DNA of 53,882 nt, taken from positions 1-53,882 of the forward strand of contig JAIVGO010000012.1 in the NCBI GenBank assembly GCA_020201525.1, in the 5' to 3' direction. A program made the translations under genes and the position numbers. Below the pieces are notes generated by a model. It saw only the letters and a list, made by a program, of their open reading frames with translations. It did not search any database and was not told the DNA's origin. This document shows, piece by piece, positions 3,398 through 35,855 of the stretch (its first letter is position 1; every line of letters begins with the position of its first letter). This DNA is from Actinomycetota bacterium. Lineage in GTDB: Bacteria > Actinomycetota > AC-67.

Positions 3398-3423
3398 TTC
3401 GACGCCCCGACGGCCATTCCTTC
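3398..3423 (-). promoter_or_regulatory. Sigma-H(Spo0H)-like promoter of the phosphoesterase at 2213-3352
   Basis: GAAGGAAT-N12-GTCGAA on the minus strand. Confidence 0.65.
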
Positions 3424-3479
3424 TCCCCGGCCTCGAGATTCAGAAGTTCACCCGCATCACGGATTCGTTGTGGACCGGG

Positions 3480-3505
3480 GAAGGATTTGCTTGCCGAGCG
3501 GTGAA
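3480..3505 (+). promoter_or_regulatory. Sigma-H-like promoter of the phospholipase C
   Basis: GAAGGATT-N12-GGTGAA. Confidence 0.6.
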
Positions 3506-3552
3506 AGTTGCATTGGGCAGGACCACACGCAGCCTTTGCCAGGGAGGCAGGA

Positions 3553-4929
3553 ATGAGACGAGGGATTCGAAGCATCGCGGCCGCTGTGGCGCCGCTCATC
3601 GGGCTCACGATTCTGGCGGGGTCGCCGGCGCACGCGACTCCGGCGTTCGCACCGATCAACCACATGGTCGTTCTCATGCAAGAGAACCGCTCCTTCGATC
3701 ATTACCTCGGCCAGCTGCATGCCTACCAAGTGGCGCAACATGGCTCCTCGACGGTCGAAGCCGAACCGGTGACGGGCAACCCCAATCCCGCCGGCGGGGC
3801 GGCCATCACGCCGTTCCACCAGACGAGCTACTGCGAGGTGGCCGACCTCGACCACTCCTGGGACGGAACACACAGCGAATGGAACAGCGGTGCCATGGAC
3901 GGATTCACGGCGGCGAACGTGAAGCCGGCCGACCCGACCGGCAGCCGCACGATGGGTTACTACAACGCAACCGACTTGCCCTACTACTACGCGCTGTACG
4001 ACACCTTCGCCATGAGCGACACCTTCTTTTCGTCGGTCCTTTCCCAGACGTTCCCCAACCGGTTTTATCTTCTTGCCGGCACGTCGTTCGGCCACATCGC
4101 AAACGACTTCCCGTTCCCTCCGGGCGAGAGTCCGGTGACCGGCTTCGCGCCGGACGGTGGCACGATCTTCAACAAGCTGGACGACGCCGGTGCGACGTGG
4201 AGGGTCTACTTCAACGAGGTGCCGTTCTCGTGGCTCTTCGGCTACGTGCGTAACGGCACCGCGGGACACGTGTTCCCGATCAGCCAGTACTATGCCGATG
4301 CCGCCGCCGGCCTCCTGCCGGATGTCGCCTTCGTCGACCCGACGTTCATCGCAACGGTCAACGTCGAAAATGACGAGCATCCACCGGCGAACATCCAGAA
4401 CGGCCAAAAGCTCGTACACGACGTTCTCGGCGCGCTGATGGCCTCGCCGAACTGGCCGGACTCCGCCGCGTTTCTCACCTACGACGAACACGGCGGCTAC
4501 TACGATCATTTGCGCCCTCCGACGGCGGTAGAACCGGATGCGCTTGGACCGAACGGTCACCCGACGCAGAAGTTCGACCAGCTCGGTATCCGGGTTCCGT
4601 TCGTCGTTGTGTCGCCCTTCGCAAAAGTGCGGTACAACTCGACGGCGCTCCCGATTGCCGGTGGTACAGCAGCGAATCCAACGTACACAACGAGCGCAAA
4701 GATCTACTCGCACACCTCGATCCTGAAGACGATCGAGGACCGGTTCACGATCCCGGCCGGCCAAACCTATCTCACGAATCGTGACGCAAGCTCGAACAAC
4801 CTTGCCGACTTGTTTGACTTCGATGCGCCGGCATTCGCAACCCCTCCGGCGCTGCCGGATGCAACCATCAACGTCGCGCAGGCGGTGGACTGCGAGGTCA
4901 ATCACGAGCACGTGCCGACAGAATTGTAG
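3553..4929 (+). CDS. Secreted phospholipase C/phosphoesterase family protein
   Basis: GGGAGG RBS; signal peptide ending AHA; MQENRSFDHY, DLDHSW, QTFPNR, DEHPP, TYDEHGGYYDH, GIRVP, HTSIL motifs. Confidence 0.92.
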   Translation: MRRGIRSIAAAVAPLIGLTILAGSPAHATPAFAPINHMVVLMQENRSFDHYLGQLHAYQVAQHGSSTVEAEPVTGNPNPAGGAAITPFHQTSYCEVADLDHSWDGTHSEWNSGAMDGFTAANVKPADPTGSRTMGYYNATDLPYYYALYDTFAMSDTFFSSVLSQTFPNRFYLLAGTSFGHIANDFPFPPGESPVTGFAPDGGTIFNKLDDAGATWRVYFNEVPFSWLFGYVRNGTAGHVFPISQYYADAAAGLLPDVAFVDPTFIATVNVENDEHPPANIQNGQKLVHDVLGALMASPNWPDSAAFLTYDEHGGYYDHLRPPTAVEPDALGPNGHPTQKFDQLGIRVPFVVVSPFAKVRYNSTALPIAGGTAANPTYTTSAKIYSHTSILKTIEDRFTIPAGQTYLTNRDASSNNLADLFDFDAPAFATPPALPDATINVAQAVDCEVNHEHVPTEL

Positions 4930-4933
4930 ATAG

Positions 4934-9877: not shown

Positions 9878-9904
9878 GCAGGGATGGGGGCCTCGGGCAG
9901 CGAA
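9878..9904 (+). promoter_or_regulatory. Sigma-H-like promoter of the repeat-protein/histidine kinase operon
   Basis: GCAGGGAT-N13-AGCGAA. Confidence 0.5.
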
Positions 9905-9994: not shown

Positions 9995-11527
9995 ATGAGT
10001 GGACTCACCGGATGGCGGCGTATCGCAACGCTCGTCTTCGCTTTGGCCCTCGTCTTCGGGGTGCTCGTAACGACGGTCCGAGTCGGCGCGAGGCTGCCGG
10101 CCACCGACTTCCTGAATCCCCATAGCCGGGTGGGAGGCGTTGATTACTCCGCGGATTCGGTCCGCGGCCTCGCACCGCTCCGGAGCGCGTTCATTCGAGA
10201 GGCCCTCGGAAGCGGAGCCTCGACGGCGCTCGCGGCCGCGCCCGACTCGAAAACGCCCACTCGAAACCAGCCGACAGTCAAAGGGCGGCGGATCGTTCAC
10301 ACTACGCCGGCGGGGCGCAACGACAGCTTTTCGAACGTGGAGAACGTTCAGACGATTCCCTTCACGGACAATACGAATACGTCTAACACCACCGTCGAAC
10401 CCGGTGAGCCTCAGGCGTGCGCACCCACCACCGGCACGGTGTGGTACCGGTTCGTTCCCTCGAAGAACGTTGGATTGTCGGCGAGCACCGAAGGAAGCAA
10501 CTTCGACACCGTACTGGCCGTCTACACGGGCACGAGCCTGAGCACACTCTCGTCGCTCGTCTGCAAGGACAGCGGAACGTTCGGGCGCCACTACGCGGTC
10601 GCGTTCCAAGCCCATGCCAGCCGGGCTCTCTATTTCCAGGTCGGCGGCGTCGGAGCCGCTCGCGGCGATCTCGTTTTCAATCTCGATCCCGCGCCCCGGC
10701 CTCCGAACGACAATTTCGCCGACGCGACTGGCTTGTCGAAAATCCCCGTCACCGATAGGACGAACACTGCAGGAGCCGGCGTCCAGCCCGGCGAGGCGCA
10801 GCCCACGTGCATCTCATCAACGGGCGCCACCGTCTGGTACCGATACACGCCTCGAACCGATGCTCCATTGGTCGCATCGACGTTCGGAAGCGACTTCGCG
10901 ACAACGCTCGGCGTGTACACCGGCGTGAAGATGACCGCGTTGCAAGAAGCTGCGTGCGATGCGAGCAACACGCCGGTCTACCCCGCGCGCGTCGTTTTCC
11001 GCCCCGTCGCCGGCCGCACGTATTCCTTTCTCGTCGGTGGAACGTTCGGAGACCGGGGCAATCTCGCGTTCACGCTTGCGGCGGCTCCCATTCATCCGCC
11101 GAACGATGATTTCGCGCACGCACGTGCGGCAGGAGTTCCTTTCGCGGACCGGCCCTCCACCTTCGGGGCGACCATTCAGACGGCCGAGCCACGACCGTCC
11201 TGCGCGACGGGTATCGCCGAGAGCGTGTGGTATCGCTTTACTCCCGGCGAAACGATGCAGCTCGTCGGCGACACGTTCGAAAGCCGTGCTGACACAGTCC
11301 TAGCGGTGTACACGGGAAGCGCATTGGGTGACCTGCAAGAAGTTCCGCTTGCCTGCAGCGACGACACCGCGATCTCGACGAGCAGCTCGGGTGGCACCGG
11401 CGTCAACAGTCAGGTATCGCAAGTGACCTTCACGGCCCTTGCCGGCGAGACGTATTTCTTCCAAGTCGGCCTCAAGAGCGACGCGCAAGGAAACATCGCG
11501 TTCAACTTGGACCGGGCTAGCACCTGA
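9995..11527 (+). CDS. Exported/membrane-anchored protein with three tandem PPC-like beta-sandwich repeats
   Basis: N-terminal TM/signal; three ~125-135 aa repeats ND.F...EP..C...VWYR(F/Y).P...T..S...T.L.VYTG...C...V.F....Y.F.VG. Confidence 0.8.
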   Translation: MSGLTGWRRIATLVFALALVFGVLVTTVRVGARLPATDFLNPHSRVGGVDYSADSVRGLAPLRSAFIREALGSGASTALAAAPDSKTPTRNQPTVKGRRIVHTTPAGRNDSFSNVENVQTIPFTDNTNTSNTTVEPGEPQACAPTTGTVWYRFVPSKNVGLSASTEGSNFDTVLAVYTGTSLSTLSSLVCKDSGTFGRHYAVAFQAHASRALYFQVGGVGAARGDLVFNLDPAPRPPNDNFADATGLSKIPVTDRTNTAGAGVQPGEAQPTCISSTGATVWYRYTPRTDAPLVASTFGSDFATTLGVYTGVKMTALQEAACDASNTPVYPARVVFRPVAGRTYSFLVGGTFGDRGNLAFTLAAAPIHPPNDDFAHARAAGVPFADRPSTFGATIQTAEPRPSCATGIAESVWYRFTPGETMQLVGDTFESRADTVLAVYTGSALGDLQEVPLACSDDTAISTSSSGGTGVNSQVSQVTFTALAGETYFFQVGLKSDAQGNIAFNLDRAST

Positions 11528-13464
11528 TGAGTGCTCGCCGCCGCCGAATCCTAACGTCGTTCCGCAATCTCCGTCTGTTCTGGAAATTGTTGCTTCCGTT
11601 CCTTGCACTCATGCTCCTCGTGGGAGCGTCGGGGGCGTTCTTCATCGTTCGTGACCTCTCGTCGCGCGCCAGGGGGGAGCTCAACCAGGACTTGCTGCGC
11701 CGCTCCGTCGATGTGGAGCTGCTCATTCGAGATCAGGAGCTGTATCTCGTCGAATCGGTTCGCTATGCGGCGAATCTTCAGAGGATGCCGGAAGCAGTGC
11801 GGGATCACGATGCTCCACAGGTGCGCGGGCTGTTGACCTCGGTGCTCGCGCTGCGGACTTCGCTCAACGCGCTGATCGTGACCGACGAAAAGGGGACGGG
11901 CCTCGTCGAAATAACGCGTTCGGACCCCCGAACGAAACAGCTCGGGGTCGGGAAAGGCGGATCGTGGTCCAAGAACCAGTTCGTCGGCGAAGTGCTAAAG
12001 GGAGTCATCGACAGTGCCGGTGACAAGCGTTCCGCGATCGTTCGGATCGGCGAACAAGCGATGCTCGCGACCGCAGGACCGATCCGGGCTCCGTCGGTGG
12101 TCGGTTCGGCAATCGTCGGAATCCGTCTCGATTCAATTGCGAAGGACGCGAGCGAAAGGCTGGGTGGCGCGAGCATCCGCTTTTTCGACGGTGACGGTTT
12201 GCTCGTCGCCTCCGCTGGGCGGATGATCTCCGCCGCGAGCCGGACCGGGCTTACCTCATCCCAGCCGGTGCGGACGACCGAGCACGTGGGAACCACCAAG
12301 GTTTCGACGATCTACATTGCCTTGCAGGCTCGCGGCGGGCGCGTCGGGACGGCGGCGATCAGTCTTCCGCAGGCCCCGGCGTTTGCTTCGGTCCGCGGCA
12401 CGGGGCTGCGGCTCATTCTCATTCTGGCCGGCGCGATGGCCCTAGCTGTTCTCGGCTTGGGTTTTCTTCTGTCCCGGTACATCCTCGCGCAAGTCCATCA
12501 TTTGGTGGAGACCAACCGCGCGCTCGGTCGCGGGGAGCTTTCGGCTCGCGCTCCGGTGCTCGGTGACGACGAGGTCGGCGAGCTGGCTGAGGGGTTCAAC
12601 CAGATGGCCGAGCAACTGGAGGCAAGTTATCAAGAGTTGGAGATGCGGGTGGAGCAACGAACGGAGGAATTGCAGCGGCTGAATCAGGAAGTGACGAAGG
12701 CCTCCGAAGCACGGTCCGAGTTCTTCGCGGCGATGAGCCATGAGTTCCGCACGCCGCTCTTTGCAATCAACGGTCACGCCGAGATGATGCTCGACCCCGA
12801 TTTCGTGCCCAAGGACCGCAGGCGTCTGTCGTCGTTCGATCAGACGATCCACGACTTCGCGTCGACCATCAAGAGCTCGGGCGAGCACTTGCTGGAGCTG
12901 GTCAACTCCATCTTGGATCTCGCCAAGTTCGAATCGGGGCGGATGAGCGTCGATCTCGAACCCGTGCAATTACCCGACCTCGTCAAGGAGATCCAGGGAC
13001 AGGTCGTTCCGCTCGCGCGGCGCGGAGACCTGAACGTCTCCTTTGACATCCCGAAAGGATTGCCGCTCGTAGCGGCCGACCCGACGCGTATTCGCGAGAT
13101 CTTGCTGAACCTGATGTCGAATGCGATCAAGTACACGCCGGCCGGGGGGCAGGTGCGTCTTGCCGCGTCCGCGAACAACGGTGTCGTGCAGGTCGCCGTC
13201 GCTGACACCGGCGTCGGGATTCCCGAGGATGCGCGAGAACGTGTCTTCGAGCCGTTCTACCAAGTCAAAGGAACCCGTGCGCAGCGCGGTCAGGCCTCGA
13301 GCGGGCTCGGGCTGGCGCTGACGAAACGTCTCGTCGAGGCGCACGGCGGAGAGATCTCGTTCGATAGCGAGGTCGGGGTCGGCACGACGTTCACGTTCAC
13401 GCTGCAGACGGCGGGCGCCGTGAAGCCTGCGCGAAAGAGAACAGCGCGAAAGCGCCCCGCCTAG
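11527..13464 (+). CDS. Membrane sensor histidine kinase (TM-extracellular sensor-TM-HAMP-HisKA-HATPase)
   Basis: DEVGELAEGFNQMA HAMP, SHEFRTPL H-box, NLMSNAIKY N-box, DTGVG, GLGL, GTTF. Confidence 0.95.
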   Translation: MSARRRRILTSFRNLRLFWKLLLPFLALMLLVGASGAFFIVRDLSSRARGELNQDLLRRSVDVELLIRDQELYLVESVRYAANLQRMPEAVRDHDAPQVRGLLTSVLALRTSLNALIVTDEKGTGLVEITRSDPRTKQLGVGKGGSWSKNQFVGEVLKGVIDSAGDKRSAIVRIGEQAMLATAGPIRAPSVVGSAIVGIRLDSIAKDASERLGGASIRFFDGDGLLVASAGRMISAASRTGLTSSQPVRTTEHVGTTKVSTIYIALQARGGRVGTAAISLPQAPAFASVRGTGLRLILILAGAMALAVLGLGFLLSRYILAQVHHLVETNRALGRGELSARAPVLGDDEVGELAEGFNQMAEQLEASYQELEMRVEQRTEELQRLNQEVTKASEARSEFFAAMSHEFRTPLFAINGHAEMMLDPDFVPKDRRRLSSFDQTIHDFASTIKSSGEHLLELVNSILDLAKFESGRMSVDLEPVQLPDLVKEIQGQVVPLARRGDLNVSFDIPKGLPLVAADPTRIREILLNLMSNAIKYTPAGGQVRLAASANNGVVQVAVADTGVGIPEDARERVFEPFYQVKGTRAQRGQASSGLGLALTKRLVEAHGGEISFDSEVGVGTTFTFTLQTAGAVKPARKRTARKRPA

Positions 13465-13859
13465 AAGGACGCGCAGAGATACGGGCCACCGGTGCCCGAC
13501 ACGTTGCAAACAACGGTCGAATTGACGGTGAGCGAAGTCGTTCCCGGCATCTGGCAGGCGGTGGCGCGCATGCCGGAATTGTGGCAGGTGTCTTCGGTGG
13601 TCGTCGTGTCACCGGACGTATGCGTAATCGACACGGTCACGCTCGCGGACGTCGGCGGGTTCGAGGTGGCGGCCCCGGCGACAAGCAGGTGCGTTCCGGC
13701 GATCTTGAACGTACACGTCGCGCCGGCGGGGGTTGCGTTGCCCTGGCAGGACGCCACGGGCTGGGCGGCAAGCCCCGGAACGGGGATCAGCGCCCACGCG
13801 AGAGCTGCTGTCGCTCCGAGCATCCCGCGGAAGCGGTTTGCTCTGCCGCCTGTCTTCAT
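13461..13859 (-). CDS. Small secreted 6-Cys protein (paralog A)
   Basis: Signal peptide; six Cys aligned with the neighbouring paralog. Confidence 0.72.
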   Translation of the reverse strand: MKTGGRANRFRGMLGATAALAWALIPVPGLAAQPVASCQGNATPAGATCTFKIAGTHLLVAGAATSNPPTSASVTVSITHTSGDTTTTEDTCHNSGMRATACQMPGTTSLTVNSTVVCNVSGTGGPYLCASF

Positions 13860-13892
13860 CGCGATTCCCGTTGGGCCGCCGTGGTGCAATAC

Positions 13893-14261
13893 CTAGGAGC
13901 TGACGCAGGCGTATTCACCAAATCCGCCGATGCTCGCGTTGCACGTCAATGCGGTTCCGACGGTGACGCTCAGCGGAAGGCTGTTCTGACAGGCAGTGAA
14001 TGCATTGCCGCTCGACGCGCAGTTCAAAGGCGGGCTGAGAGGAAGGCCGTTCTTGAGCACCGAGACCGCCACGCTCGCGGTGCCCGCGTTCGTTGCGGCG
14101 GCGAATATCGTGATCTTGGTCCCGGTGGCCGTGAACGGGCACGAGCCGGATGTACCCTGGCAAAGCTGCGCCGCTTCACCCTGACCCGGCACGAGCAACG
14201 CGACGAGACATACAGCGGCAAAAAAGATCACCATCCGCCGTGGCGCTTTCCGAGCCTTCAT
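13893..14261 (-). CDS. Small secreted 6-Cys protein (paralog B)
   Basis: Basic N-terminus plus hydrophobic signal ending GEA; six Cys in the mature part; promoter motif upstream. Confidence 0.75.
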   Translation of the reverse strand: MKARKAPRRMVIFFAAVCLVALLVPGQGEAAQLCQGTSGSCPFTATGTKITIFAAATNAGTASVAVSVLKNGLPLSPPLNCASSGNAFTACQNSLPLSVTVGTALTCNASIGGFGEYACVSS

Positions 14262-14304: not shown

Positions 14305-14330
14305 TTCTACGCTGTCGACGCGATTCCTTC
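14305..14330 (-). promoter_or_regulatory. Sigma-H-like promoter of the 6-Cys protein pair
   Basis: GAAGGAAT-N12-GTAGAA on the minus strand. Confidence 0.65.
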
Positions 14331-14381: not shown

Positions 14382-14407
14382 GCAGGATCGGTGCGTTTCG
14401 CGGCGAA
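14382..14407 (+). promoter_or_regulatory. Sigma-H-like promoter of the small HTH gene
   Basis: GCAGGATC-N12-GGCGAA, 11 nt before the ATG. Confidence 0.55.
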
Positions 14408-14418
14408 ATACCAGGGCA

Positions 14419-14721
14419 ATGCCGAAGAAACCGCAGACCTACCGGGCCGACGAGTCTCCCGGCGTCACCGGAACCGAGCTTTTCCGGCCGCCGCCGCCAC
14501 TCGAGCCGGCCGATCAGACGATCCTGGACGCCCTCTGCCGTCCCGTGTTGGACGGCGATGCTTTCACGCCGCCGGCCACGCCGGATGAGATCGCGGCCCA
14601 GGTCGGGCTGGCCGAGTCGGTCGTGACGAGCCGGCTCGAGCGCCTGTGTGGCGCCTTCGAGGTCGACGACGTGCCGAACCTCGCGATGGAGGCCATTCGC
14701 CGGGGCGCCGCACGTCCGTAG
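14419..14721 (+). CDS. Small HTH protein resembling the LuxR-like C-terminal domain of actinobacterial FHA-HTH regulators
   Basis: ILDALCRPVL....PPATPDEIAAQVGLAESVVTSRLERLCGAFEV pattern. Confidence 0.62.
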   Translation: MPKKPQTYRADESPGVTGTELFRPPPPLEPADQTILDALCRPVLDGDAFTPPATPDEIAAQVGLAESVVTSRLERLCGAFEVDDVPNLAMEAIRRGAARP

Positions 14722-14747
14722 CAGGAAAACGGCTCGATCCTGTCGAA
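14721..14747 (+). promoter_or_regulatory. Sigma-H-like promoter of the beta-propeller gene
   Basis: GCAGGAAA-N13-GTCGAA. Confidence 0.65.
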
Positions 14748-14785: not shown

Positions 14786-16255
14786 ATGATTGCCAGGATC
14801 AAGGCCGTACTACCGCTACTCGCACTCACACTCACACTCCTACCCATGCGCGCATCCGCCGCGCCGTGGGTCATCACCCGCGTACCGGTCGGCAACGACC
14901 CGCAAGGCATCGCCGTGATGGGAACGCGCGTCTTCGTGGCAAACGCACTCGACAACACGGTGTCGGTGTGGGATGAGCAGGCCGCCGCCGTCGTCGCGAC
15001 CGTCCGGGTCGGGCGTAAGCCGTCGGGGATCGCGGCCGATGCGGAAACGGGCCGGGTGTACGTCGCCAACATCGCCGATGCAAGCGTGTCGGTGATCGAC
15101 GGCGCCTCGTCCCCGCGCGTCCTTCAAACGATCAAGCTCCGCATGGAGAAGCCGGCCGCGGTCGCCGTCGATTCGTACCTGCGCCGCGTGTACGTCGCGC
15201 ATCCGACGAAGAACGCCGTTTCGGTGGTCGACGTATCCGGAGCGAAGCCGGCGCTGTCGACTCTCAAAGCCGGTTCCAAACCCGGCAGCCTTGCCGTCGT
15301 GGTGTCGGGATCGCCGGGCGTCCATCGTCTCGTCGTAACGAACACCGGGTCGAATACGGTCTCGATCGTCAATCTCACTTCTTCGGCCACTCGTGCGCCG
15401 GCGGGCGCCGGCAGCATCGGCGTGTGCAAGGCGCCGTCGGGCGCTGCCGTTGATCAAGCCGCGAACATTTTGTACATCGCGTGCAGCGACTCGAGCGTCC
15501 AAGCCGTCGACTTGGCGGCGCGGTCGGTCGTGCAAACGTACGCCGGCGCGACCGGACGCAGCATCGCCGTCGCGACGGCGCTCAAGAAAGCATTCATCGC
15601 CGATGCAACCGGCCTTCGCGTGATCGATCTCGCGTCGAAGAAAGTAATCGCCACCACGATCACGTCCCATCCGGTCGGCGTCGCCGTCGGTGCAGCCGGC
15701 GATCGCGTTTACGTCACCGAATACGAGAGCCGCGAGAAGGGCGGAGCGCTCCTCATCGTCGGCGACGATCTTGCGGCGCCCGCGTCGAAGATCTTGTCGA
15801 ACAGCCTGCAGCCGGTGCCGTCGCAAACGTTTCGCGTCGGTCCGGCGACGCTCACCGGCGAAGGTGTGGTGCCGCCGAACACCTTCCCCTTTGCCGGGCG
15901 CTCGACCGACGTGCTTTCCGGGGTCAAGAGCGTCGCGGTGACGTTCGTCGGCTCCGCCAACGGCGCGCGCTTTTCCTACGACGCGTCGGTGATCAACTGC
16001 GACGACGGCAACCACGAATGCACGTGGGTCGTCCATAAAGGGCCGCCGCCGCCCGGCGCGTACCGCGTCACCGCGCGCGCGACGGACGGAGCCGGCAACG
16101 TCGAATCGCCCGGCGCCTCCGCGACGGTGATCGTTGCCGCGGTTGCGACCCGAGCGAGCAATGCGGCCGGTGTCTGGGGCCTGCTCGGCGGGCTGGCGGC
16201 TGCCGGGATCGCCGGCGGCGTCCTTACGACTCGCCGCCGCCGCAGAGCGGCTTAA
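14786..16255 (+). CDS. Secreted YncE/YVTN beta-propeller with Ig-like domain and C-terminal TM-polyArg tail
   Basis: Signal ending ASA; repeated VG..P.GIA....RVYVAN....VSVID units; YRVTARATDGAGNVE Ig motif; tail WGLLGGLAAAGIAGGVLTTRRRRRAA. Confidence 0.88.
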   Translation: MIARIKAVLPLLALTLTLLPMRASAAPWVITRVPVGNDPQGIAVMGTRVFVANALDNTVSVWDEQAAAVVATVRVGRKPSGIAADAETGRVYVANIADASVSVIDGASSPRVLQTIKLRMEKPAAVAVDSYLRRVYVAHPTKNAVSVVDVSGAKPALSTLKAGSKPGSLAVVVSGSPGVHRLVVTNTGSNTVSIVNLTSSATRAPAGAGSIGVCKAPSGAAVDQAANILYIACSDSSVQAVDLAARSVVQTYAGATGRSIAVATALKKAFIADATGLRVIDLASKKVIATTITSHPVGVAVGAAGDRVYVTEYESREKGGALLIVGDDLAAPASKILSNSLQPVPSQTFRVGPATLTGEGVVPPNTFPFAGRSTDVLSGVKSVAVTFVGSANGARFSYDASVINCDDGNHECTWVVHKGPPPPGAYRVTARATDGAGNVESPGASATVIVAAVATRASNAAGVWGLLGGLAAAGIAGGVLTTRRRRRAA

Positions 16256-19680: not shown

Positions 19681-19690
19681 CCTTCCTGCT

Positions 19691-19716
19691 TTCGCCGTCG
19701 CCGGGCCCAACCCTGC
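19691..19716 (-). promoter_or_regulatory. Sigma-H-like promoter of the rhomboid fusion
   Basis: GCAGGGTT-N12-GGCGAA on the minus strand, 10 nt before the ATG. Confidence 0.5.
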
Positions 19717-21837: not shown

Positions 21838-22472
21838 CGATCGGCGTCTTGCTCGTCGACGACCACACGGTCTTTGCCGAGACGCTCGCGGCTGCGCTCA
21901 AGACGAATGCCGACATAGCGATTCTCGGCGTCGCGAATACATCGACGGACGGTCTCGAAAAAGCGACGGCACTGAAGCCGGACGTCGCGCTGCTCGACGT
22001 GATGCTGCCGGACTACGACGGCATCGAGCTTGCGCGTCGGGTGCGGACGGCGTCGCCGGAAACGAAAGTCGTCATGCTGACCGGGGAAACCGATCCCGCA
22101 CTGTTCGCAAAGGCCATGGCGGCAGGCGCGTGCGGGTACCTCATCAAGGAATCGAGCCTCGGTGACGTCACCGACGCGGTCCGGCGAGCGTACGCCGGCC
22201 AGGTCGTCGTCCCCGACAAAGCCGTGAGTCGTCTGACGCAAGCGCAAGCGCCGCCCAAAGGCGTCGGATCGGATCTCACCGACCGTGAGCTCGAGGTGCT
22301 TGGCTTGCTCGCGCAAGGCAAAGATGCGAAGACGATCGCGAAGAGCCTCGGGATCACGTGGCACACGGCTCGGTCGTACTTGAAGACGGTTCTTATGAAG
22401 CTCGACGCGCACAGTCAGCTCGAAGCGGTGGCGGTCGCGACGCGACTCGGCATCATCGGGAGGCCCAAGTAG
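21834..22472 (+). CDS. NarL/LuxR-family response regulator
   Basis: LVDDH, LLDVMLP, MLTG, YLIK; LTDRELEVL...IAKSLGI...KLDAHSQLEAVA. Confidence 0.95.
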   Translation: MTIGVLLVDDHTVFAETLAAALKTNADIAILGVANTSTDGLEKATALKPDVALLDVMLPDYDGIELARRVRTASPETKVVMLTGETDPALFAKAMAAGACGYLIKESSLGDVTDAVRRAYAGQVVVPDKAVSRLTQAQAPPKGVGSDLTDRELEVLGLLAQGKDAKTIAKSLGITWHTARSYLKTVLMKLDAHSQLEAVAVATRLGIIGRPK

Positions 22473-22810
22473 TGGGAGTTCTTGTCGTCGAAGATTCCGA
22501 GGCGATCGGGAAGATGCTCGTCCAGGTGCTCGAGCGAGCCGGGTTCGAAGCTAAGTGGACGGACAATGTCGAAGATGCCTTGTCCACCGCGGCGGAATGG
22601 ATTCCCGACGTTGTGCTCCTCGATCTTCACCTCGGCGATGCGCCGGGCATCGAAGTCGCCAAGAAGCTTCGCAAGAGCGCCGCTACCAGCAAGGTTCGTG
22701 TTATCGGCCTCTCGGGTGACCCGCCGGCGAAAGCCGAGCAGAAGCACCTCGACGGCTTTCTGCTGAAGCCCGTCGCGCTGGCCGCAGTCGTCGAAGCAGT
22801 CCGAGGTTAG
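22472..22810 (+). CDS. Single-domain response regulator (CheY/Spo0F-like)
   Basis: GTG start overlapping the upstream TAG; VVED, LLDLHL, GLSG, LLKP. Confidence 0.88.
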   Translation: MGVLVVEDSEAIGKMLVQVLERAGFEAKWTDNVEDALSTAAEWIPDVVLLDLHLGDAPGIEVAKKLRKSAATSKVRVIGLSGDPPAKAEQKHLDGFLLKPVALAAVVEAVRG

Positions 22811-22811
22811 A

Positions 22812-22849
22812 CCCCGCAGATGCGGGGGTAGGCAGCCCGCAACATGGGG
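22812..22849. promoter_or_regulatory. Tandem CCCGCA-N2-TGCGGG boxes upstream of the second single-domain regulator
   Basis: CCCCGCA-GA-TGCGGGG (22812-22827) and degenerate CCCGCA-AC-ATGGGG (22836-22849). Confidence 0.45.
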
Positions 22850-22878
22850 TATTCCACCGCGGGTACAGGCCCGACAAT

Positions 22879-23247
22879 GTGTCCATGAGCATTCGAGTCA
22901 TGATCGTGGACGACGACCCGACGGTTCGCGTGACGCTGGCGCGCTTTTTTGCGCTCCATAAGGATCTCAAGGTCGTCGGCGAAGCCACGAACGGTCGCGA
23001 CGGCGTCGAGCTTGCGCAACGCGTGAAGGCCGACGTCATCGTCATGGATGCCCGTATGCCCGAGATGAACGGGCTCGAGGCGACGGAGCAAATTCGGTCG
23101 CTCGGCATCAACACCCCGGTGCTGATCTTCAGTGCCGAGGACGGGGTCGCCGGCAAGATCAACGGCCTCGCGAAAGTTGGTTTTCTCACGAAGCACGGGT
23201 CGGGGCCGCGCGAAACCATCGCCGCGATCCGCGAACTCGCGTCCTAA
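22879..23247 (+). CDS. Single-domain response regulator
   Basis: IVDDD, VMDARMP, IFSAE, FLTK. Confidence 0.9.
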   Translation: MSMSIRVMIVDDDPTVRVTLARFFALHKDLKVVGEATNGRDGVELAQRVKADVIVMDARMPEMNGLEATEQIRSLGINTPVLIFSAEDGVAGKINGLAKVGFLTKHGSGPRETIAAIRELAS

Positions 23248-23300: not shown

Positions 23301-26300
23301 TTACGGACGCGCCCAACGGCGCCGGCGACGCTGCGTGAGAATCGCTGCGGCGATCGTGGCTGCGATGAGACCGAGGATGAGCAGAAGCCGGTTCGGCGGC
23401 GCGGCGATCGTAATGCTTTCACCTGCCGGCTCGGCAAGTGGATAGTACTCGCCGATCTCGACGGCGCCGGCCTTCTTTGCCGTCGCAGGCTGCGAAACCG
23501 TTTCCGTGCCCGGGGCGACAAACTTGATGCCGAAGCTCAGCGTTTCGTTCTCGGCGATACCCGCTTTCGACAAGCCGGCGCCGCGGATGGAGATCTGCCG
23601 CCAGAACTTTCCGCGTCCCGACGTGACGCAGTGCGTCGCTTTGGTCACGTCGACGGTTTCCGGGATGAACGTAAAGCTGTGCCCGAAGAAACCTTCTTCG
23701 TGCTGACCGAAGACGGGATAGTGCGCCGGCGGCGGGTTTTGAATCATTTGCTGATCGTAAAACGTCTCGGAGACACCGAGCGCCGCGCCGACGCTTCGCG
23801 GTGACCCGCACGTTGCATCGGTGCCGCACGCGTACGTGTCGGTCATGACGGCACGTTGTGTCGGAACGTGCGCCATCATGACCCAGTCTTCACAGAGTTG
23901 GGGTCCGCTTCGCCCGTCCGCGATCTTTTCGGTCGGCGTCGGAACGCTGCGGCATCCGTCTGCGTACGCGTCCTTGCGGTAATTCGGCACGGCGACCACC
24001 GACGCGTTGCTTCCGCCCACTGCTCCGCTCCAGCGCCACGCCACCCAGGTATCGAGCGCGAAAGCGATGTCACGGACTTGAATCTGCGCCGGGAGGGTCG
24101 CGTCTGCTCCACCTTTCGGAATGAACGACAAGCGGACGACACAGCGGCAACTTTGGTTCTGAGTGATGCGCGTGAAGTCGAAGTGCGCCTTCTTGTCGCT
24201 CCCGACGTTGAACGCGATGTTCGATCCCGATGGAACGTTGCCCTTGATCAGGGATTGGATCGTCGTGCCGTTCACAACGACCGTCCCGTTGGCGGTGACG
24301 AGGCCGGCGATCTTGTCGGGCCCGCTCCCGCCGATCACCTCGACGAGCATTAACGCGTTCTTCAGCGCGTACGAGAAGTCGAGCGACAGGTGATACCGGT
24401 AGTTCGGCGAGACGAGCCGGAACGGATATTCAAGGACGAGGAACGGCGACTTGCCGGGAAGCGCACCGGCAAACGTCGCCGAGAAGGGCGCCGACAGCGC
24501 GGCCTTCTTCTCGGCGTCGGTCTTCGGCGCCGTCGCCGGATCGCAACTCTCACGGTTGATCGTCCAGGCGCTCGTGTGCGGAAAGGTCGATCCCGGCGCG
24601 TACGACGCAAGGACATCTGGATCGCTGTTGAACAAATCCCTGCATTTGACGAGGTCGATGGAACGCGACGAGACGGCCGGACCCGGAGACTTCTCGACGT
24701 TGCCGAATACGTAGCGGATGTTTTCGGTGAGAAACCGTCCCTTGTATGTGCCGGTCGAAGCGTCGTAATTCGCCGAGCTGAAACCCGGCGCGCAGTCCGG
24801 CCGCTTCACCTTTGGACACAGAGTGTCCGGAAGAACCAACGCGTCTTGCCCGAGCGACTGATAGATCATGCGATCGCCGAGGTCGACCTCGGTCGTCGTC
24901 TCGGTGGCTTCGGTGGTTCCCACGGCTTGACCCGGGACGACGCGCGTCGGCGCGCCGTAATCGGAGAACAGCCGTATGTCGTAGAACCCTGGAAGGACGA
25001 ACTTGAAGTTGGCGTTGCCGGCTTTGTCGGTCATCAAGAAGTACAGCTCCAGAGACTGCTGGGACGGAATCATCGCGATCCAGTGTTCGAACGCCGAGCC
25101 GATCGGCACGGTCGGCACCAAGCCGAAAGTCAGCGCATCTGCGTCGCTCCCGCCGAGATACGTGGCATGCGCCGTGAGGCTCATTCCCTTGATCCAGCAG
25201 ACCGGTGTCGGCACGGATGTCGCGCCGAAGTGCACGGCGAGGAAACCGCAGAAATACCCTTCGGAGTCGGTCGCCGCCGGCGACACATGGATGTGAATGC
25301 ATCCGTTGTGGTCGTGGTGATGTCCGCCGGTGGGAGGCGGCTGAACGGCTCCCTCGGGGTGCGTCGCGCAGGCAGCGATATGCGGCACCGCTTCGGCGGC
25401 GATTCCCTGCACCTGTTCGACTGTGGGGCCGTCGATTCCGATCGTTGCAACGTCGGTGACTTCGAGCGTCACCAGTTGATCCGGCGTTCCGTTTTGGATG
25501 CGGATCATCGCCGCCGATGTGCCGTTTGCGGCATCGACGGCGGTGTCGCCGTGGTCGAGGACGAGGGGGCGTGTCGGATCGGCCGAGGCGTCGTACAAGC
25601 TGTCTGGATACGAACGCAGGTCACCGGCGCCTTGCTGCCAGACCGGCACGCCCGGCAAGCGTTCGGCCGTTGTGTTGAATGCGCCTCGGATCGACGTCGG
25701 GTCGATGCCCTTGGCGTGCAACGCGGCCGCTTGAACGGCGACGACCGCGGCTGAGGGCAGCGTGGACGCAAGCGATGCGCGTGCCGCGTCCGGCGGCGTT
25801 TCGAGCGTGTCCTTCCACAGGGGCTTCAGCGCCGCGTTCAACAAGCCGGCGTCGCCCAAGGCCTTGCCGAGCAGTGAATTCGAGGGCAGTAGCCCGACGA
25901 CGCCGGACGGCGCCACGATGTCCGGCTTCACGCGAAGCGCCTTGAATCCGTTCGTGTTCTGCGGTGCCGGATCGGTCCAACCTTCGTTCTTCACGTCGAA
26001 GGCTGGGCCGCGCGCGCTCTGCGCCGGCACCGTCGCGCCGTCCGACGCTCCGACGGTGAGGACTTGCGGAAGGTTCGCGATGCCGAAGATCGTCTGCAAG
26101 TCCTCGGGCTTCATGCCCTGGTTGACGTCGCCGGCGGGAACGACGATCGGAATCCCGCGTGCATCGAGCAAGTTGATCTTCGTGAGGAGGATGCTCCACA
26201 CAGAGCTCAGATCCTGGTACTCCTTGGCGCCTGCTGCAGACACCGTAGGAATGTTTCCGATGAAGCTCGTGCTGCCGCCACCGAGAGCCACGCCGAACAT

Positions 26301-26936
26301 GTGGCCGCCTTTGACCGGGGTTGGTGGCCGGCCCTCCGACGCATTGACGATCCCGTCCCACTGCTTGCGCACCATCATCGCGAAGATCGGATCGAGCAGC
26401 TCACTCGGCGGCATGCCGAACAAGACTGCGTCGACCGCACCGTCCTTTGCCATTGCCGCCGCCGTGTCGAACGCGCCGCGAATTGCGTACGAGCTGACCA
26501 GTCCGGTCGCGTCGTATCCGCTCAGCGATGTGATGTGGGCATGCGGTACCAGCTGAAGAACGATCGACGCGAGAAAGGATCCGTATCCGATCGGGTCGGT
26601 CGTGTCTTGGCTCGTGATGCCTTTGACGAGCGGGCGCAAAGGTTCCGGCAAGACGCTCGTCGCGATTCCCGACGAGATGAGTACGATGTTCGGATCGTCC
26701 TTCGGCGGACGAAGTGCATCGATCGAGGCCAGCGGCTTCGCGCGCTTGTTTGCTACGAAGTCTCCCGGACACCCGGCGAGGCGACCCGGGTCCGACGTCT
26801 GTGGGCAGGCGAGTGCGCCGCGAAGCACCGGTCGCTGCGGTACCTCGAGCGGATGGGCCGCCGCCGGCGCCGCAGCAGCGGTTGCGAGAACGGCGACGAC
26901 GAAGCGAACGATGAGCCTCTTGGAAGAAACACGCAT
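23301..26936 (-). CDS. Large secreted subtilase (S8)-fold protein with substituted catalytic triad and C-terminal TM-polyArg tail
   Basis: Signal MRVSSKR...AAAH; S8 landmarks IVLISSGI, DPIGYGSFLA, VVPAGD, VLTVGASD, SARGP, KPDIVAP, QGAG; tail LLLILGLIAATIAAAILTQRRRRRW. Confidence 0.8.
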   Translation of the reverse strand: MRVSSKRLIVRFVVAVLATAAAAPAAAHPLEVPQRPVLRGALACPQTSDPGRLAGCPGDFVANKRAKPLASIDALRPPKDDPNIVLISSGIATSVLPEPLRPLVKGITSQDTTDPIGYGSFLASIVLQLVPHAHITSLSGYDATGLVSSYAIRGAFDTAAAMAKDGAVDAVLFGMPPSELLDPIFAMMVRKQWDGIVNASEGRPPTPVKGGHMFGVALGGGSTSFIGNIPTVSAAGAKEYQDLSSVWSILLTKINLLDARGIPIVVPAGDVNQGMKPEDLQTIFGIANLPQVLTVGASDGATVPAQSARGPAFDVKNEGWTDPAPQNTNGFKALRVKPDIVAPSGVVGLLPSNSLLGKALGDAGLLNAALKPLWKDTLETPPDAARASLASTLPSAAVVAVQAAALHAKGIDPTSIRGAFNTTAERLPGVPVWQQGAGDLRSYPDSLYDASADPTRPLVLDHGDTAVDAANGTSAAMIRIQNGTPDQLVTLEVTDVATIGIDGPTVEQVQGIAAEAVPHIAACATHPEGAVQPPPTGGHHHDHNGCIHIHVSPAATDSEGYFCGFLAVHFGATSVPTPVCWIKGMSLTAHATYLGGSDADALTFGLVPTVPIGSAFEHWIAMIPSQQSLELYFLMTDKAGNANFKFVLPGFYDIRLFSDYGAPTRVVPGQAVGTTEATETTTEVDLGDRMIYQSLGQDALVLPDTLCPKVKRPDCAPGFSSANYDASTGTYKGRFLTENIRYVFGNVEKSPGPAVSSRSIDLVKCRDLFNSDPDVLASYAPGSTFPHTSAWTINRESCDPATAPKTDAEKKAALSAPFSATFAGALPGKSPFLVLEYPFRLVSPNYRYHLSLDFSYALKNALMLVEVIGGSGPDKIAGLVTANGTVVVNGTTIQSLIKGNVPSGSNIAFNVGSDKKAHFDFTRITQNQSCRCVVRLSFIPKGGADATLPAQIQVRDIAFALDTWVAWRWSGAVGGSNASVVAVPNYRKDAYADGCRSVPTPTEKIADGRSGPQLCEDWVMMAHVPTQRAVMTDTYACGTDATCGSPRSVGAALGVSETFYDQQMIQNPPPAHYPVFGQHEEGFFGHSFTFIPETVDVTKATHCVTSGRGKFWRQISIRGAGLSKAGIAENETLSFGIKFVAPGTETVSQPATAKKAGAVEIGEYYPLAEPAGESITIAAPPNRLLLILGLIAATIAAAILTQRRRRRWARP

Positions 26937-26998
26937 GCCCACGACCCCCTGGCGTCGGTTCCTTGCTGCATCCCGCCGCGGCAGCTTTGCTCTTGAGG

Positions 26999-27024
26999 TT
27001 CGCGCCGGGGGCTCGTTTTCCTTC
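26999..27024 (-). promoter_or_regulatory. Sigma-H-like promoter of the pseudo-subtilase
   Basis: GAAGGAAA-N12-CGCGAA on the minus strand. Confidence 0.55.
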
Positions 27025-32123: not shown

Positions 32124-32137
32124 GGCCCCTCCTCGTA

Positions 32138-32155: not shown

Positions 32156-32182
32156 CTAGCCCCGCGCAGGCCCGGAAATGAA

Positions 32183-32217: not shown

Positions 32218-32230
32218 AAAGCGAAGCGCT

Positions 32231-33226
32231 TTAGCAGCCCGTCTCGATCACGATTTGTCCCGCGTCGTTGGTGAATTCGGACGCGGGGAACTGAACGTCC
32301 CCGCCCCCGATCACGATGCCGCACGTCCCGATGTACAGGGCCGGAAGCGGATAGGGATCGTCCGATGCGTTGCCGCCGCTGAAGAACGACAGCGCTTCCG
32401 GCGAGCCCTGGGCGTCGGGATCCTCGTAGATTTGGACGCCCGGCTCTACGTACGTCGTTCCTTCGTGCGCATTCCATGCGGACAGCGCCTTGTCGCCGCA
32501 ATCCGGCGGCTGGTCGCTCGGGCCGGCGCACGTCTTCGGGTCCCACTTTTTGCCGTCGTAGTTCGAGACGTCGCGCTCGCTGTCTTGACCGCCCTGGAAC
32601 GCAGTGCGGCGCTGCGACTGAACGCTTATGCAGATGCCGTCGGCGCAGAATCCCGTGCCGGCGTCGCCGACGGGCAGCGGGTGCGTGAGCAAATAGCTTT
32701 GGTCCTGCAGCGCGAGCGCTGCGACCCAGTCGTTCACCGAATTCGGATCCAGGTTGAACTGAATCGCGCCGCCGTCGCTCGGCCCGTTGTTGACTTGCCG
32801 CGAGGAGTCGTGCTCGCCCTCGTCCAAGTTGTCGTCGGCGCCGAAGTAGATGTGGATGCCGGTTTCCGGATGCGCTTCCGTGCCGGCGGTCGTGACCGGA
32901 TCCTGCGGGCCATTCTCGTCGAAGCGCTGGCTCGTGCGCGTCCCGTCGCCGAGGTCGTACCAGTACTCGCCGGCGTGAACGAACTCTCCTTCGGGCGTTT
33001 GGAACGTTCCCATTCCGAAGTACTCGTGGCCGGTGCCGTCGTACACGACCAGCGCAATGTTGTGACAGCCCTCCTCGGTCGTCTCGCCGTGGTTGTAGTT
33101 GTCGGCGGCACCTGTGCAACCCTGTTTCGCGGGGTCGTAGTTACCGTCGCTGATGGCGTGAGCGGCCTGGCCGGCGAAGAGCCCGGTCACCGCGACGAGC
33201 GCCAGCACAATCGAACGAGCTTTCAT
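32231..33226 (-). CDS. Secreted acidic, Cys-containing protein of unknown function
   Basis: GGGAGG RBS, signal ending AHA; Asp/Glu/Gly-rich, 8 Cys. Confidence 0.78.
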   Translation of the reverse strand: MKARSIVLALVAVTGLFAGQAAHAISDGNYDPAKQGCTGAADNYNHGETTEEGCHNIALVVYDGTGHEYFGMGTFQTPEGEFVHAGEYWYDLGDGTRTSQRFDENGPQDPVTTAGTEAHPETGIHIYFGADDNLDEGEHDSSRQVNNGPSDGGAIQFNLDPNSVNDWVAALALQDQSYLLTHPLPVGDAGTGFCADGICISVQSQRRTAFQGGQDSERDVSNYDGKKWDPKTCAGPSDQPPDCGDKALSAWNAHEGTTYVEPGVQIYEDPDAQGSPEALSFFSGGNASDDPYPLPALYIGTCGIVIGGGDVQFPASEFTNDAGQIVIETGC

Positions 33227-33264
33227 AATGGAGCCTCCCTCCCTGGGTGACGTGCGAGTCAGGT

Positions 33265-33291
33265 TTCGACGCTCTTGGGGCGGTCTCCTCC
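33265..33291 (-). promoter_or_regulatory. Sigma-H-like promoter of the acidic secreted protein
   Basis: GGAGGAGA-N13-GTCGAA on the minus strand. Confidence 0.55.
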
Positions 33292-33338
33292 CATCATTGG
33301 GGTCGTTCCCCGGGTTTTGCCCGTCGTACACTGCCTTC

Positions 33339-34109: not shown

Positions 34110-34115
34110 GCAGTC

Positions 34116-35069
34116 GTGAAATTCATTCCGTATCACGAGCTGGCCGGGCGCCCGAACATCGTCGTCGACGGCGAAGGCACGGACGGTACGATGCTGACGC
34201 TTTCGCATTGGCCGGGAAGCGGCTCTCCGAGCGAGCTCGCCGCAGACCTGTCGACTCAGATCGCGTTTCGCTATCTCGATACGCCGACGGCCCACGTCGC
34301 CGCCGAGGCGGCGTCCAACAATCACTACGACCAAGACGGCGTCTGTGGCGTGTTCGCGGTGCTCGAGCCCGAGCAAGCCTTGCAGCGGCGCGACATGCTC
34401 ATCGACATCGCCTCGGCAGGTGACTTTGAAACGTTCCGGAGTCGCGACGCGGCGCGCATCTCGATGGCACTCGCCGCGTTCGGCGACGAAGAGCGTTCAC
34501 CGATTGCATCCGCGCTCGCCGGCCGCTCCTATCCCGATCAAGTCGGCAGCGCAATGGATCACGTTCTGCCGAGGCTCGCCGAGATGATCGACAATCCCGC
34601 TCCGTACAAAGCGTTGTGGGAAGAAGAGGACGCGCGTCTCGCCGCCGACGACGCCGCGATCGCAAGCGGCCGCGTCACGATTGAGGAGGCACCCGACATC
34701 GACCTTGCGATCCTCACGGCGCCCGAGGGCTACGGCCCCGGGTACCACGACGATCAGTGGAGCGGCGGATGCCATCCGATGGCGATCCACAACCGGACGC
34801 AGCGATTCCGGGTTCTGGTCGTCCAGGGATCGCGATTCATCGTGCGCTACCGGTACGAGACGTGGGTGAACTTCATGTCGCGTCCGGTCTTGCCGCGCGT
34901 AGACTTGAAGCCGTTGGCGGCGATGCTGAGTAACGAGGACTCTGTCCCGTGGAAGTTCGACGGCGTGGGCCACATGACGCCGGCGCTGCACACGCAAGGG
35001 GGCGCGGAAAGCTCGCTCGGCGCCGCCCGTTTTCGCGAGCTCGTGGGAACCTTTTTGCGCGCGAGCTAA
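34116..35069 (+). CDS. DUF6687-like (DHH-related) protein
   Basis: NIVVDG, LSHWP, ADLST, NNHYDQDG, AGDF, HPMAIHN, YRYETWV. Confidence 0.72.
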   Translation: MKFIPYHELAGRPNIVVDGEGTDGTMLTLSHWPGSGSPSELAADLSTQIAFRYLDTPTAHVAAEAASNNHYDQDGVCGVFAVLEPEQALQRRDMLIDIASAGDFETFRSRDAARISMALAAFGDEERSPIASALAGRSYPDQVGSAMDHVLPRLAEMIDNPAPYKALWEEEDARLAADDAAIASGRVTIEEAPDIDLAILTAPEGYGPGYHDDQWSGGCHPMAIHNRTQRFRVLVVQGSRFIVRYRYETWVNFMSRPVLPRVDLKPLAAMLSNEDSVPWKFDGVGHMTPALHTQGGAESSLGAARFRELVGTFLRAS

Positions 35070-35087
35070 GCCCACGGCCATCAAGAA

Positions 35088-35116
35088 GAAAGGCTCCCTT
35101 TTTCAGGGAGCCTTTC
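35088..35116 (-). terminator. Rho-independent terminator (probably bidirectional)
   Basis: GAAAGGCTCCCT-N5-AGGGAGCCTTTC with TTCTT following on the minus strand. Confidence 0.78.
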
Positions 35117-35131
35117 GCGCGAGCTGATATC

Positions 35132-35764
35132 TCACGACGTGGAATAAGCGATGCTTGTGAAGTTCCCCCAGAGATTCCACCACTGCGTATTGCCGGTGGT
35201 CGTCGCGACGTTCCCCCGCCACGTTGCGGCTTCGGTGCCGTAGAAGGCGCCATAGAACGCAAACGACAGCGGACCCGTGAGATTGAAATGGAATTTGACG
35301 AACTTGCTTCCGGTGGACAACCCCGTGTCTGTGCATCCGGTGTCGCCGCCGACGAATCCACCGATCATCGCGATGCCGGGGTCGAGCGCTTGAGCCGGCA
35401 CGCCCGATCCACCGTTGGCATTGGATCCTTGGAAGTCGGAGATGCATGGAAACGTCGCCGGCGCGCTACCGCCGTACCAATACGCCGGCTTCGACGTCTT
35501 GAGCGAGGTATGCGAAATCATCGTCCCCGGCGCGGCGGAGAAGACACGAAAGCCGAACCACACGGCGCCGGAAGCGCCCGGATCTCCGGCAGGGTTCGAC
35601 GTGTCGATGCAAATCTCGTAACCGGTTCCACATCCGGCAATCTTGATGGCGCCGACACCGTCCTTCGTGAAGTCGGCGGCGGCTCCGGCGGGCGCGGCCG
35701 TCGCGATGATTGCGGTCAGCGCCGCTGCCAGGGCGGCCCCGTACAGTGCTCGAGCTCGTCTCAT
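35132..35764 (-). CDS. Secreted Gly/Thr/aromatic-rich protein of unknown function
   Basis: GGAGG RBS, signal MRRAR...AGA; 4 Cys; own promoter and terminator. Confidence 0.75.
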   Translation of the reverse strand: MRRARALYGAALAAALTAIIATAAPAGAAADFTKDGVGAIKIAGCGTGYEICIDTSNPAGDPGASGAVWFGFRVFSAAPGTMISHTSLKTSKPAYWYGGSAPATFPCISDFQGSNANGGSGVPAQALDPGIAMIGGFVGGDTGCTDTGLSTGSKFVKFHFNLTGPLSFAFYGAFYGTEAATWRGNVATTTGNTQWWNLWGNFTSIAYSTS

Positions 35765-35828
35765 CTTTCCTCCAAAGTAGTCAAAACCGGGGATCTCGAA
35801 TCTTTCGGTTTCGGATCCCCGACATCAC

Positions 35829-35855
35829 TTCCACGCGGGTATCCTGTGATCCTGC
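35829..35855 (-). promoter_or_regulatory. Sigma-H-like promoter of the secreted protein at 35132-35764
   Basis: GCAGGATC-N13-GTGGAA on the minus strand. Confidence 0.6.

Follow-up and report, generated by a model that had tools for sequence, protein, structure and literature searches.

The 53,882-nucleotide stretch studied here, called the window throughout (contig JAIVGO010000012.1 of assembly GCA_020201525.1, C59 in our numbering), belongs to a 3.7-Mb metagenome-assembled genome (MAG) of an uncultured member of the Actinomycetota, with 64% G+C (209 contigs, 95% complete). It carries ten intergenic sites that are, with a probability we set near 0.8, promoters read by RNA polymerase with the organism's own SigH, a sigma factor of the Spo0H type. 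They would be ten of about 180-220 SigH-type promoters in this genome, placed preferentially before genes for exported proteins. SigH would read a -35 element GnAGGA(A/T)(A/T) and a -10 element G-n-C-GAA(T) lying 11-12 bp apart, equivalent to AGGR-N17/18-GAA. An initial annotation of the window had proposed that a Spo0H-like sigma drives an extracellular-protein programme in this lineage; the enrichment of the motif, the presence of a SigH gene and the phyletic profile support this proposal.

Genes were called with a purpose-written codon-usage script (3489 genes, 89% of the genome covered, approximate start codons), and the 1948 genes with their own upstream region form the base set of the genome-wide tallies. 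Sites were scored in bits with a two-block matrix and a spacer term, those of at least 15 bits making up the genome-wide list.

Form and position of the bipartite element

All ten sites share one layout: an AGG(A/G) box, GAA 17 or 18 bases further on, then a start codon. The printed sequence and a regular-expression search place them at the coordinates and on the strands first reported, each oriented toward the next gene, and the likely start codon lies 13-93 nucleotides (nt) past the G of GAA, close to the 10-90 nt announced. The predicted SigH-type promoters and their targets are listed below, with scores in bits and protein lengths in amino acids (aa).

3398..3423, minus strand: before the phosphoesterase gene 2213-3352(-) (PF04185, signal-like N-terminus); boxes GAAGGAAT-N-GTCGAA; score 21.7; GAA to start 48 nt
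3480..3505, plus strand: divergent promoter, before the phosphoesterase gene 3553-4929(+) (PF04185); score 18.5
9878..9904, plus strand: before the exported protein gene 9995-11527(+) (signal-peptide class, no Pfam family; a HAMP histidine kinase gene, 11587-13464, comes next); score 18.7; start 93 nt off
14305..14330, minus strand: before the genes of small exported proteins 13893-14261(-) and 13461-13889(-); score 20.3; N-terminus MKARKAPRRMVIFFAAVCLVALLVPGQGEA; no Pfam family
14382..14407, plus strand: before the 100-aa gene 14419-14721(+), probably leaderless with its ATG 14 nt past the G of GAA; score 18.0; no signal peptide, no Pfam family
14721..14747, plus strand: before the gene of a secreted NHL/beta-propeller protein, 14786-16255(+) (NHL and YNCE matches, signal-peptide class); score 23.6, the highest in the window
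19691..19716, minus strand: before the gene of a membrane protein with rhomboid and tetratricopeptide repeat (TPR) domains, 16252-19680(-), probably leaderless with its ATG 13 nt past the G of GAA; score 17.7
26999..27024, minus strand: before the gene of a 1213-aa exported protein, 23301-26942(-) (signal-peptide class, no Pfam family); score 19.5
33265..33291, minus strand: before the exported protein gene 32231-33228(-); score 20.9; N-terminus MKARSIVLALVAVTGLFAGQAAHA; no Pfam family
35829..35855, minus strand: before the gene of a 210-aa exported protein, 35132-35764(-) (signal-peptide class, no Pfam family); score 16.6, the weakest of the ten

The targets thus comprise two phosphoesterases, the NHL propeller, the rhomboid-TPR protein and six proteins without known family. 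When their N-termini were read, eight appeared signal-peptide-like, as had been claimed; one target is the polytopic rhomboid-TPR membrane protein, and one (14419-14721) has no such N-terminus. The matrix scan of the window found no further gene with a site of at least 15 bits. An eleventh, weaker copy had been proposed at 43218..43244(-), before the gene of an ABC-transporter binding protein (41789-43222(-)); it was rejected, the best score there being 9.2 bits, and scores of at least 9 bits occur about 4400 times in coding DNA, with the right spacer or not.

Could the ten sites have arisen by chance, as matches of a loose pattern to G+C-rich intergenic sequence? The pattern first described, G[ACG]AGG[AG]-N2-N12/13-N3-GAA, holds only about 14 bits, and its 14 matches in the window include, besides the ten intergenic sites, four within coding sequence (3671-, 4595-, 29652+ and 29803+). 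Controls in which the boxes were kept and the spacer length alone was altered (seven other lengths for the regular expression, +6 and -6 for the matrix) refute this explanation, to which we leave hardly any probability. At a spacer of 12/13, ten intergenic matches were counted in the window against 0-2 at the other spacers, and 186 in the whole genome against 51-78; the corresponding counts in coding DNA were 4 against 2-10 in the window and 341 against 349-377 in the genome. The intergenic sites are thus far above chance and the four coding matches at chance level. A control based on the reversed pattern proved misleading, high-GC families without SigH also having more forward than backward matches (64 against 11 in genome G098), and the spacer shift was therefore used in its place.

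The same spacing emerges from looser and stricter searches. Across the 1948 upstream regions, counts of AGGR-Nx-GAA are highest at x = 17 (88 matches) and x = 18 (129), with 30-66 at other values of x. The matrix finds 226 intergenic sites of at least 15 bits, against 50 and 41 when the spacer is shifted by +6 and -6, and no excess in coding DNA (182 and 97, against 173-203 and 114-115 with shifted spacer). About 180 of the 226 listed sites are real, around one fifth being noise. Most of the 226 (196) point toward the next gene, 23 lie in the opposite orientation and 7 at contig ends. The enrichment that the initial annotation implied is thus present genome-wide, in correctly oriented intergenic positions. 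The consensus is GnAGGAww-N11/12-GnCGAA(t), with a G two bases before AGGA, A/T after AGGA and G-n-C before GAA. The base after GAA had been described as mostly A; this holds in six of the ten window sites, whereas genome-wide T is the commonest (35%, for a genome T content of 18%).

Start codons give a further indication, independent of gene calls. Counting ATG or GTG codons at the head of open reading frames (ORFs) at least 100 codons long gives 12, 11 and 10 at positions +12, +13 and +14 from the G of GAA, with 0-5 at most other offsets between +4 and +34. The simplest reading of this pile-up is that some 33 promoters, about one site in seven, give leaderless messenger RNAs (mRNAs). The element would thus be a promoter, its transcription start lying about 12-14 nt after the G of GAA. 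This leaderless subclass, with about 33 sites genome-wide, includes window positions 14382-14421 and 19680-19716 and would link leaderless transcription to an alternative sigma. Such mRNAs are frequent in Actinobacteria.

The motif could alternatively be a transcription-factor site or another DNA or RNA element located upstream of exported-protein genes; bipartite motifs of fixed spacing also occur as dimeric regulator sites. Nevertheless, the two halves of the matrix are dissimilar and form neither a palindrome nor a direct repeat, the orientation of the sites follows the downstream gene, and long ORFs start exactly where leaderless transcripts would have them start. Moreover, the motif matches a known promoter class. 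A non-promoter element is in our opinion highly improbable. Promoters of SigA type (TTGAC-N18/19-TAnnnT) show a spacing peak of their own in this genome, with 27 and 26 matches against 0-8 at the other spacers tested, and SigH-type promoters thus constitute a second, separate class.

The known class in question is that of Bacillota SigH promoters. In Sporomusa sphaeroides KIAC, 322 transcription start sites (TSSs; 16.1% of the total) have a -35 AGGA, a -10 GAAT and a spacer of 17-18 nt (PMC12456013), and SigH promoters of Clostridioides difficile, such as that of lplA (AAAGGAG...GTCGAAT), are of like form (PMC7438776). The sites described here share the AGGA and GAA(T) boxes and the 17-18 nt gap with the promoters of Bacillus subtilis and C. 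difficile; they differ by a -10 element that favours C before GAA and in which T is weaker. Like Sporomusa (PMC12456013), this genome possesses a large SigH-type promoter class. Sporomusa, however, forms spores, belongs to the Bacillota and has SigF, SigE and SigK, and its promoters are based on mapped TSSs, whereas ours are predicted from sequence.

SigH, its locus and the other sigma factors

An orthologue of Spo0H/SigH is indeed encoded in this genome, outside the window. The gene sigH (G000:C86:22142-22783(-)) specifies a protein of 213 aa that exceeds the curated cut-offs of three SigH equivalog models (TIGR02859, 315.5 for a cut-off of 294.8; NF006148, 332.5 for 208; NF006145, 315.4 for 212). 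Its nearest relatives, at 70-87% identity, come from Actinomycetota MAGs, including Candidatus Aquicultor secundus, and its identity to SigH proteins of Bacillota is 62-70%. Compared with nine SigH proteins, six of them from Bacillota (64-87% identity), regions 2 and 4.2 are nearly invariant; in the alignment of the ten sequences, mean column identity is 75%, and little or no variation occurs in the runs QEGMIGL, TRQ.ITA.KTATR.KH.PLN and RH.KS.DNALQR.KRK. There are strong grounds to think that a SigH this similar reads the same boxes as its Bacillota counterparts and, since the DNA-reading regions are near-identical, the genome must contain such sites for SigH. We infer that SigH is the reader of the sites.

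The gene order around sigH is ispD-ispF-cysS-rlmB-sigH, secE and nusG not being adjacent. It agrees with the cysS side of the conserved cysS-nusG locus in which Firmicutes sigH lies (PMC3364868). The equivalog-level protein, its near-invariant regions and the cysS-rlmB-sigH order are shared with B. subtilis and C. difficile. The upstream region of sigH contains a SigA-type promoter, TTGACC-N16/17-TATATC, a likeness to B. subtilis, where sigH also lies behind a SigA-type promoter. The programme would thus probably be under the control of SigH level or activity and switched on by whatever sets them; by analogy with Bacillota, the trigger could be the entry into nutrient limitation.

In an unrooted tree of 79 SigH sequences, built by a quick method from sequences picked by similarity to the query, the 14 actinobacterial sequences lie on one side of a branch supported at 99% by the Shimodaira-Hasegawa-like approximate likelihood ratio test (SH-aLRT) and no Bacillota group encloses them. 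This tree and the shared locus fit an old vertical descent; one ancient transfer is also possible.

The genome possesses other sigma factors worth describing. About 1 kb downstream of sigH, a gene on the minus strand (G000:C86:20172-21101(-)) encodes a 309-aa group-2-like sigma of the RpoD/SigB family; an unknown 202-aa gene of opposite orientation lies between it and sigH. Elsewhere are found a second group-2-like sigma (contig C92), a WhiG/FliA sigma (C5) and a SigB/F/G-family sigma (C137). A 484-aa sigma resembling those of extracytoplasmic function (ECF), with a long C-terminal extension, is encoded at G000:C195:9113-10567(-); it is preceded by a SigH-type site of 19.9 bits and its start codon lies 12 nt past GAA, a leaderless arrangement. 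The motif before this gene suggests a cascade from SigH to an ECF sigma. In the window itself, a 67-aa ORF at 2009-2212(+), between an epimerase gene and a phosphoesterase gene, consists of the helix-turn-helix (HTH) of Sigma70 region 4 alone (PF04545, E = 3e-7); it may be a fragment of a gene or an independent region-4 protein.

Co-occurrence of SigH and the motif

Of the 21 genomes of the uncultured actinobacterial class to which the window belongs, 20 have SigH, the exception being 62% complete. In a sample of 301 genomes spread evenly across the phylum, 121 have a match at E <= 1e-30 (114 of the 290 published genomes), with 43 of them above the curated cut-off. In these 301 genomes we counted GNAGGAW-N13/14-GNNGAA and, as control, the same boxes with N16/17. 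Right-spacer and control counts are practically equal in the 180 genomes without SigH (4066 against 4037) and in the 57 with a weaker SigH-like match (1633 against 1661), and reach 2522 against 1623 in the 64 genomes with a match at E <= 1e-80. All 13 genomes with a motif excess of z >= 3 have a SigH gene. Leaving out the 11 unpublished genomes gives the same result (3960/3947 without SigH, 1619/1655 with the weaker match, 2305/1472 at E <= 1e-80). Thus, across 301 genomes, the correctly spaced motif is in excess only where SigH is present.

The relation also holds at the level of families. Motif excess differs between the 16 families with SigH and the 37 without (Mann-Whitney p = 0.0012), and it tracks SigH in at least six families. 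Family f9 is divided: its three genomes with SigH have 144 right-spacer matches against 43, its five published genomes without SigH 135 against 148. In this family SigH, spoVS and motif excess occur together in G042, G056 and G084, and none of the three was found in G028, G070, G110, G123 and G136; they seem to form a module that is retained or lost as a whole. The largest motif excess belongs to G220 (family f27, 5.5 Mb), which has three SigH-like genes: the loose pattern gives 69 matches against 13, the strict pattern 56 sites against 2 for the reversed pattern, with a highly uniform consensus GCAGGAAnC...GTCGAA.

The gene spoVS, a homologue of which has a site among those sampled in other families, offers a link to a classical target. 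It depends on SigH in Bacillus thuringiensis (PMC8510167) and in C. difficile (PMC7438776). In a comparison of 71 upstream regions, a site of at least 15 bits lies 22-61 nt before spoVS in five of the eight SigH-bearing families examined (f9 3/3, f44 2/2, f6 1/1, f50 1/1 and f26 2/5). Among the 28 spoVS regions of families without SigH, two reach 15 bits, both in AT-rich genomes and about 110 nt upstream, and none of the six SigH-less families has the motif at a consistent position. Through spoVS the motif is thus connected, across phyla, with a classical SigH target, although not in the lineage of the window.

Conservation of a window target could be followed for one of the phosphoesterases (3553-4929). 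Upstream of 11 of 12 homologues from the class, which are 38-57% identical and come from five other genera, a site of at least 12 bits lies at a distance of 50-135 nt, and nine of them have one of at least 15.9 bits; the spacers differ. For the NHL protein (14786-16255), no orthologue turned up among the other 20 class genomes.

Several observations weigh against the attribution of the sites to SigH, or against its extent. About 20% of the sites of at least 15 bits are expected by chance, according to the shifted-spacer controls. The E <= 1e-80 split was picked after the data had been seen, and related genomes are non-independent. Families f30 (163 against 163) and f24 (736 against 757) have SigH and no whole-genome excess; thus, the presence of SigH is not always predictive of many sites. 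Within the window's own family, none of 11 spoVS regions has a site. In the window's genome, a scan of the region upstream of sigH revealed no SigH-type site and thus no sign of autoregulation. The best matches to the Spo0A and SigE models reach 78 bits (cut-off 200, receiver domain only) and 55 bits (cut-off 348.6), so that neither protein was found; nor were spoVG and spoVS, and any of the four may have been missed at 95% completeness. Partnership with Spo0A in a sporulation cascade is typical of sporulators, not a requirement of the SigH family. No site of at least 12 bits precedes the comEA-comEC operon (comEC on contig C138); dprA fragments lie at contig ends. Finally, this genome has about 30 genes of the sigma-70 family (30 Sigma70_r2 matches), about 20 of them ECF-type.

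This abundance raises the question of whether the sites are genuine promoters of another alternative sigma, either ECF-type or group-2-like and near sigH, that shares the phyletic distribution of SigH. The motif before the ECF-like sigma gene at C195:9113-10567 and the SigH-bearing families without motif excess would agree with it, and ECF sigmas typically control regulons with many exported and envelope proteins. ECF promoters are characterised by a -35 element with a conserved AAC and a -10 element with CGT, about 16-17 nt apart, and the matrix contains neither a conserved AAC in its -35 block nor a CGT-type -10. The spacing of the blocks equals that of the known SigH promoters (PMC12456013). 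Furthermore, the regions by which SigH reads DNA are near-identical to those of Bacillota, the motif excess follows SigH in at least six families, and spoVS carries the motif in five. We therefore regard another sigma as rather unlikely and keep SigH as the reader of the sites.

Content and possible origin of the regulon

Exported proteins are strongly represented among the predicted targets. The signal-peptide test was a crude N-terminal heuristic (positive charge, hydrophobic run, small residues at -3/-1, or a lipobox). By this criterion 72 of the 163 motif-bearing genes fall in the signal-peptide class (44%), 31 more have an N-terminal anchor and 60 no hydrophobic N-terminus. The corresponding figures for all 1948 genes are 343 (18%) and 178 with an anchor, and for the 52 genes with a SigA-type promoter 6 (12%) and 4. 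A second tally gave 79 of 180 motif genes against 265 of 1770 (Fisher p = 3e-18). The enrichment in signal peptides proposed by the initial annotation is thus supported by this crude heuristic. Its term 'secretome regulon' was overstated, given the 60 targets without hydrophobic N-terminus and the presence of the motif before only 72 of the 343 genes of the signal-peptide class: the bias toward exported proteins is strong, not exclusive. It is also found in other families, where 16 of the 29 sites sampled in three genomes of two families precede genes of the signal-peptide class.

Outside the window, 160 targets have a site no more than 200 nt away; the 60 with the highest scores were scanned against Pfam, and 35 of them belong to no family there. 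The known families include four S15 peptidases, a subtilase, an esterase, a penicillin amidase and a GH92 glycosidase, as well as a pyrroloquinoline quinone (PQQ) propeller, a cupredoxin, CAP, Calx-beta and Ig-like proteins; the cytoplasmic targets are MoaA, an M24 peptidase and one ECF-like sigma. As a class, SigH-type promoters are thus found preferentially before genes for exported proteins (peptidases, phosphoesterases, esterases, glycosidases, redox proteins with PQQ or copper, and many without family) and also before those for membrane proteins, while most recognisable SigA-type promoters (TTGAC-N18/19-TAnnnT) precede genes for cytoplasmic proteins.

Compared with known systems, this programme combines familiar and unfamiliar features. 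In B. subtilis and C. difficile SigH is concerned with sporulation, division and competence genes. Here the host is a high-GC member of the Actinomycetota in which Spo0A, SigE, spoVG and spoVS were not found, and the approximately 200 sites mostly precede genes for exported proteins, many transcripts being apparently leaderless. In the absence of these four genes from our searches and of a site before comEA-comEC, the SigH-type set is neither a sporulation nor a competence switch. A SigH-family sigma in non-sporulating bacteria recalls the SigH-like/ComX factors of Lactobacillus sakei, staphylococci and streptococci; those, however, are described as highly divergent and as switching on DNA-uptake genes (PMC3364868). 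The SigH described here, unlike them, stays close to that of sporulating bacteria, and its comEA-comEC operon lacks the motif. An alternative sigma largely devoted to exported and membrane proteins also evokes the ECF (group 4) envelope-stress sigmas, from which this system differs by its boxes and spacing and by the lack of an anti-sigma gene adjacent to sigH among the neighbours seen. Typical ECF regulons are far smaller than the number of SigH-type sites counted here.

Two other loci of the window deserve mention. The region 19787-23247(+) is an unusual cluster mixing kinase and two-component features: a 493-aa protein joins a Ser/Thr protein kinase with a receiver domain and a LuxR-type HTH, and next come an unknown 190-aa gene, a regulator of receiver-LuxR type and two receivers of one domain each. 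At 34116-35069(+), a gene for a DUF6687 protein (E = 5e-82) adjoins a gene for a GDSL-like lipase; neither has a SigH-type site.

Both the promoter class and the sigma family are already known, and SigH has so far been described as a Firmicutes sigma family tied to sporulation and competence (PMC3364868). We found no description of a Spo0H-type sigma in Actinobacteria in the full-text literature, which leaves out most subscription journals. What appears to be undescribed is the presence and abundance of this promoter class and this sigma family in Actinomycetota, the exported-protein regulon and the leaderless subclass.

One evolutionary scenario may be put forward, tentatively and at clearly less than even odds. 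A Spo0H-type SigH, with its cysS-rlmB-sigH locus and its AGGA-N17/18-GAAT specificity, would predate the split between Actinomycetota and Bacillota. Crown actinomycetes would have lost it, and deep lineages would keep it as the sigma of the extracellular proteome, serving about one fifth of exported-protein promoters, many of them leaderless, with SigA left in charge of cytoplasmic functions. The sporulation and competence roles of Bacillota would then be later specialisations of an ancestral starvation and exoenzyme programme.

Promoters of SigH that can be read from sequence provide a testable regulon map for lineages that cannot be grown. The motif may serve as a marker for predicting co-expressed exoproteins among the many unknown proteins of these genomes, and the combination of spacing controls with phyletic profiles would allow promoter classes to be assigned in MAGs. 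These promoters also give a fresh perspective on the origin of the SigH programme and its timing.

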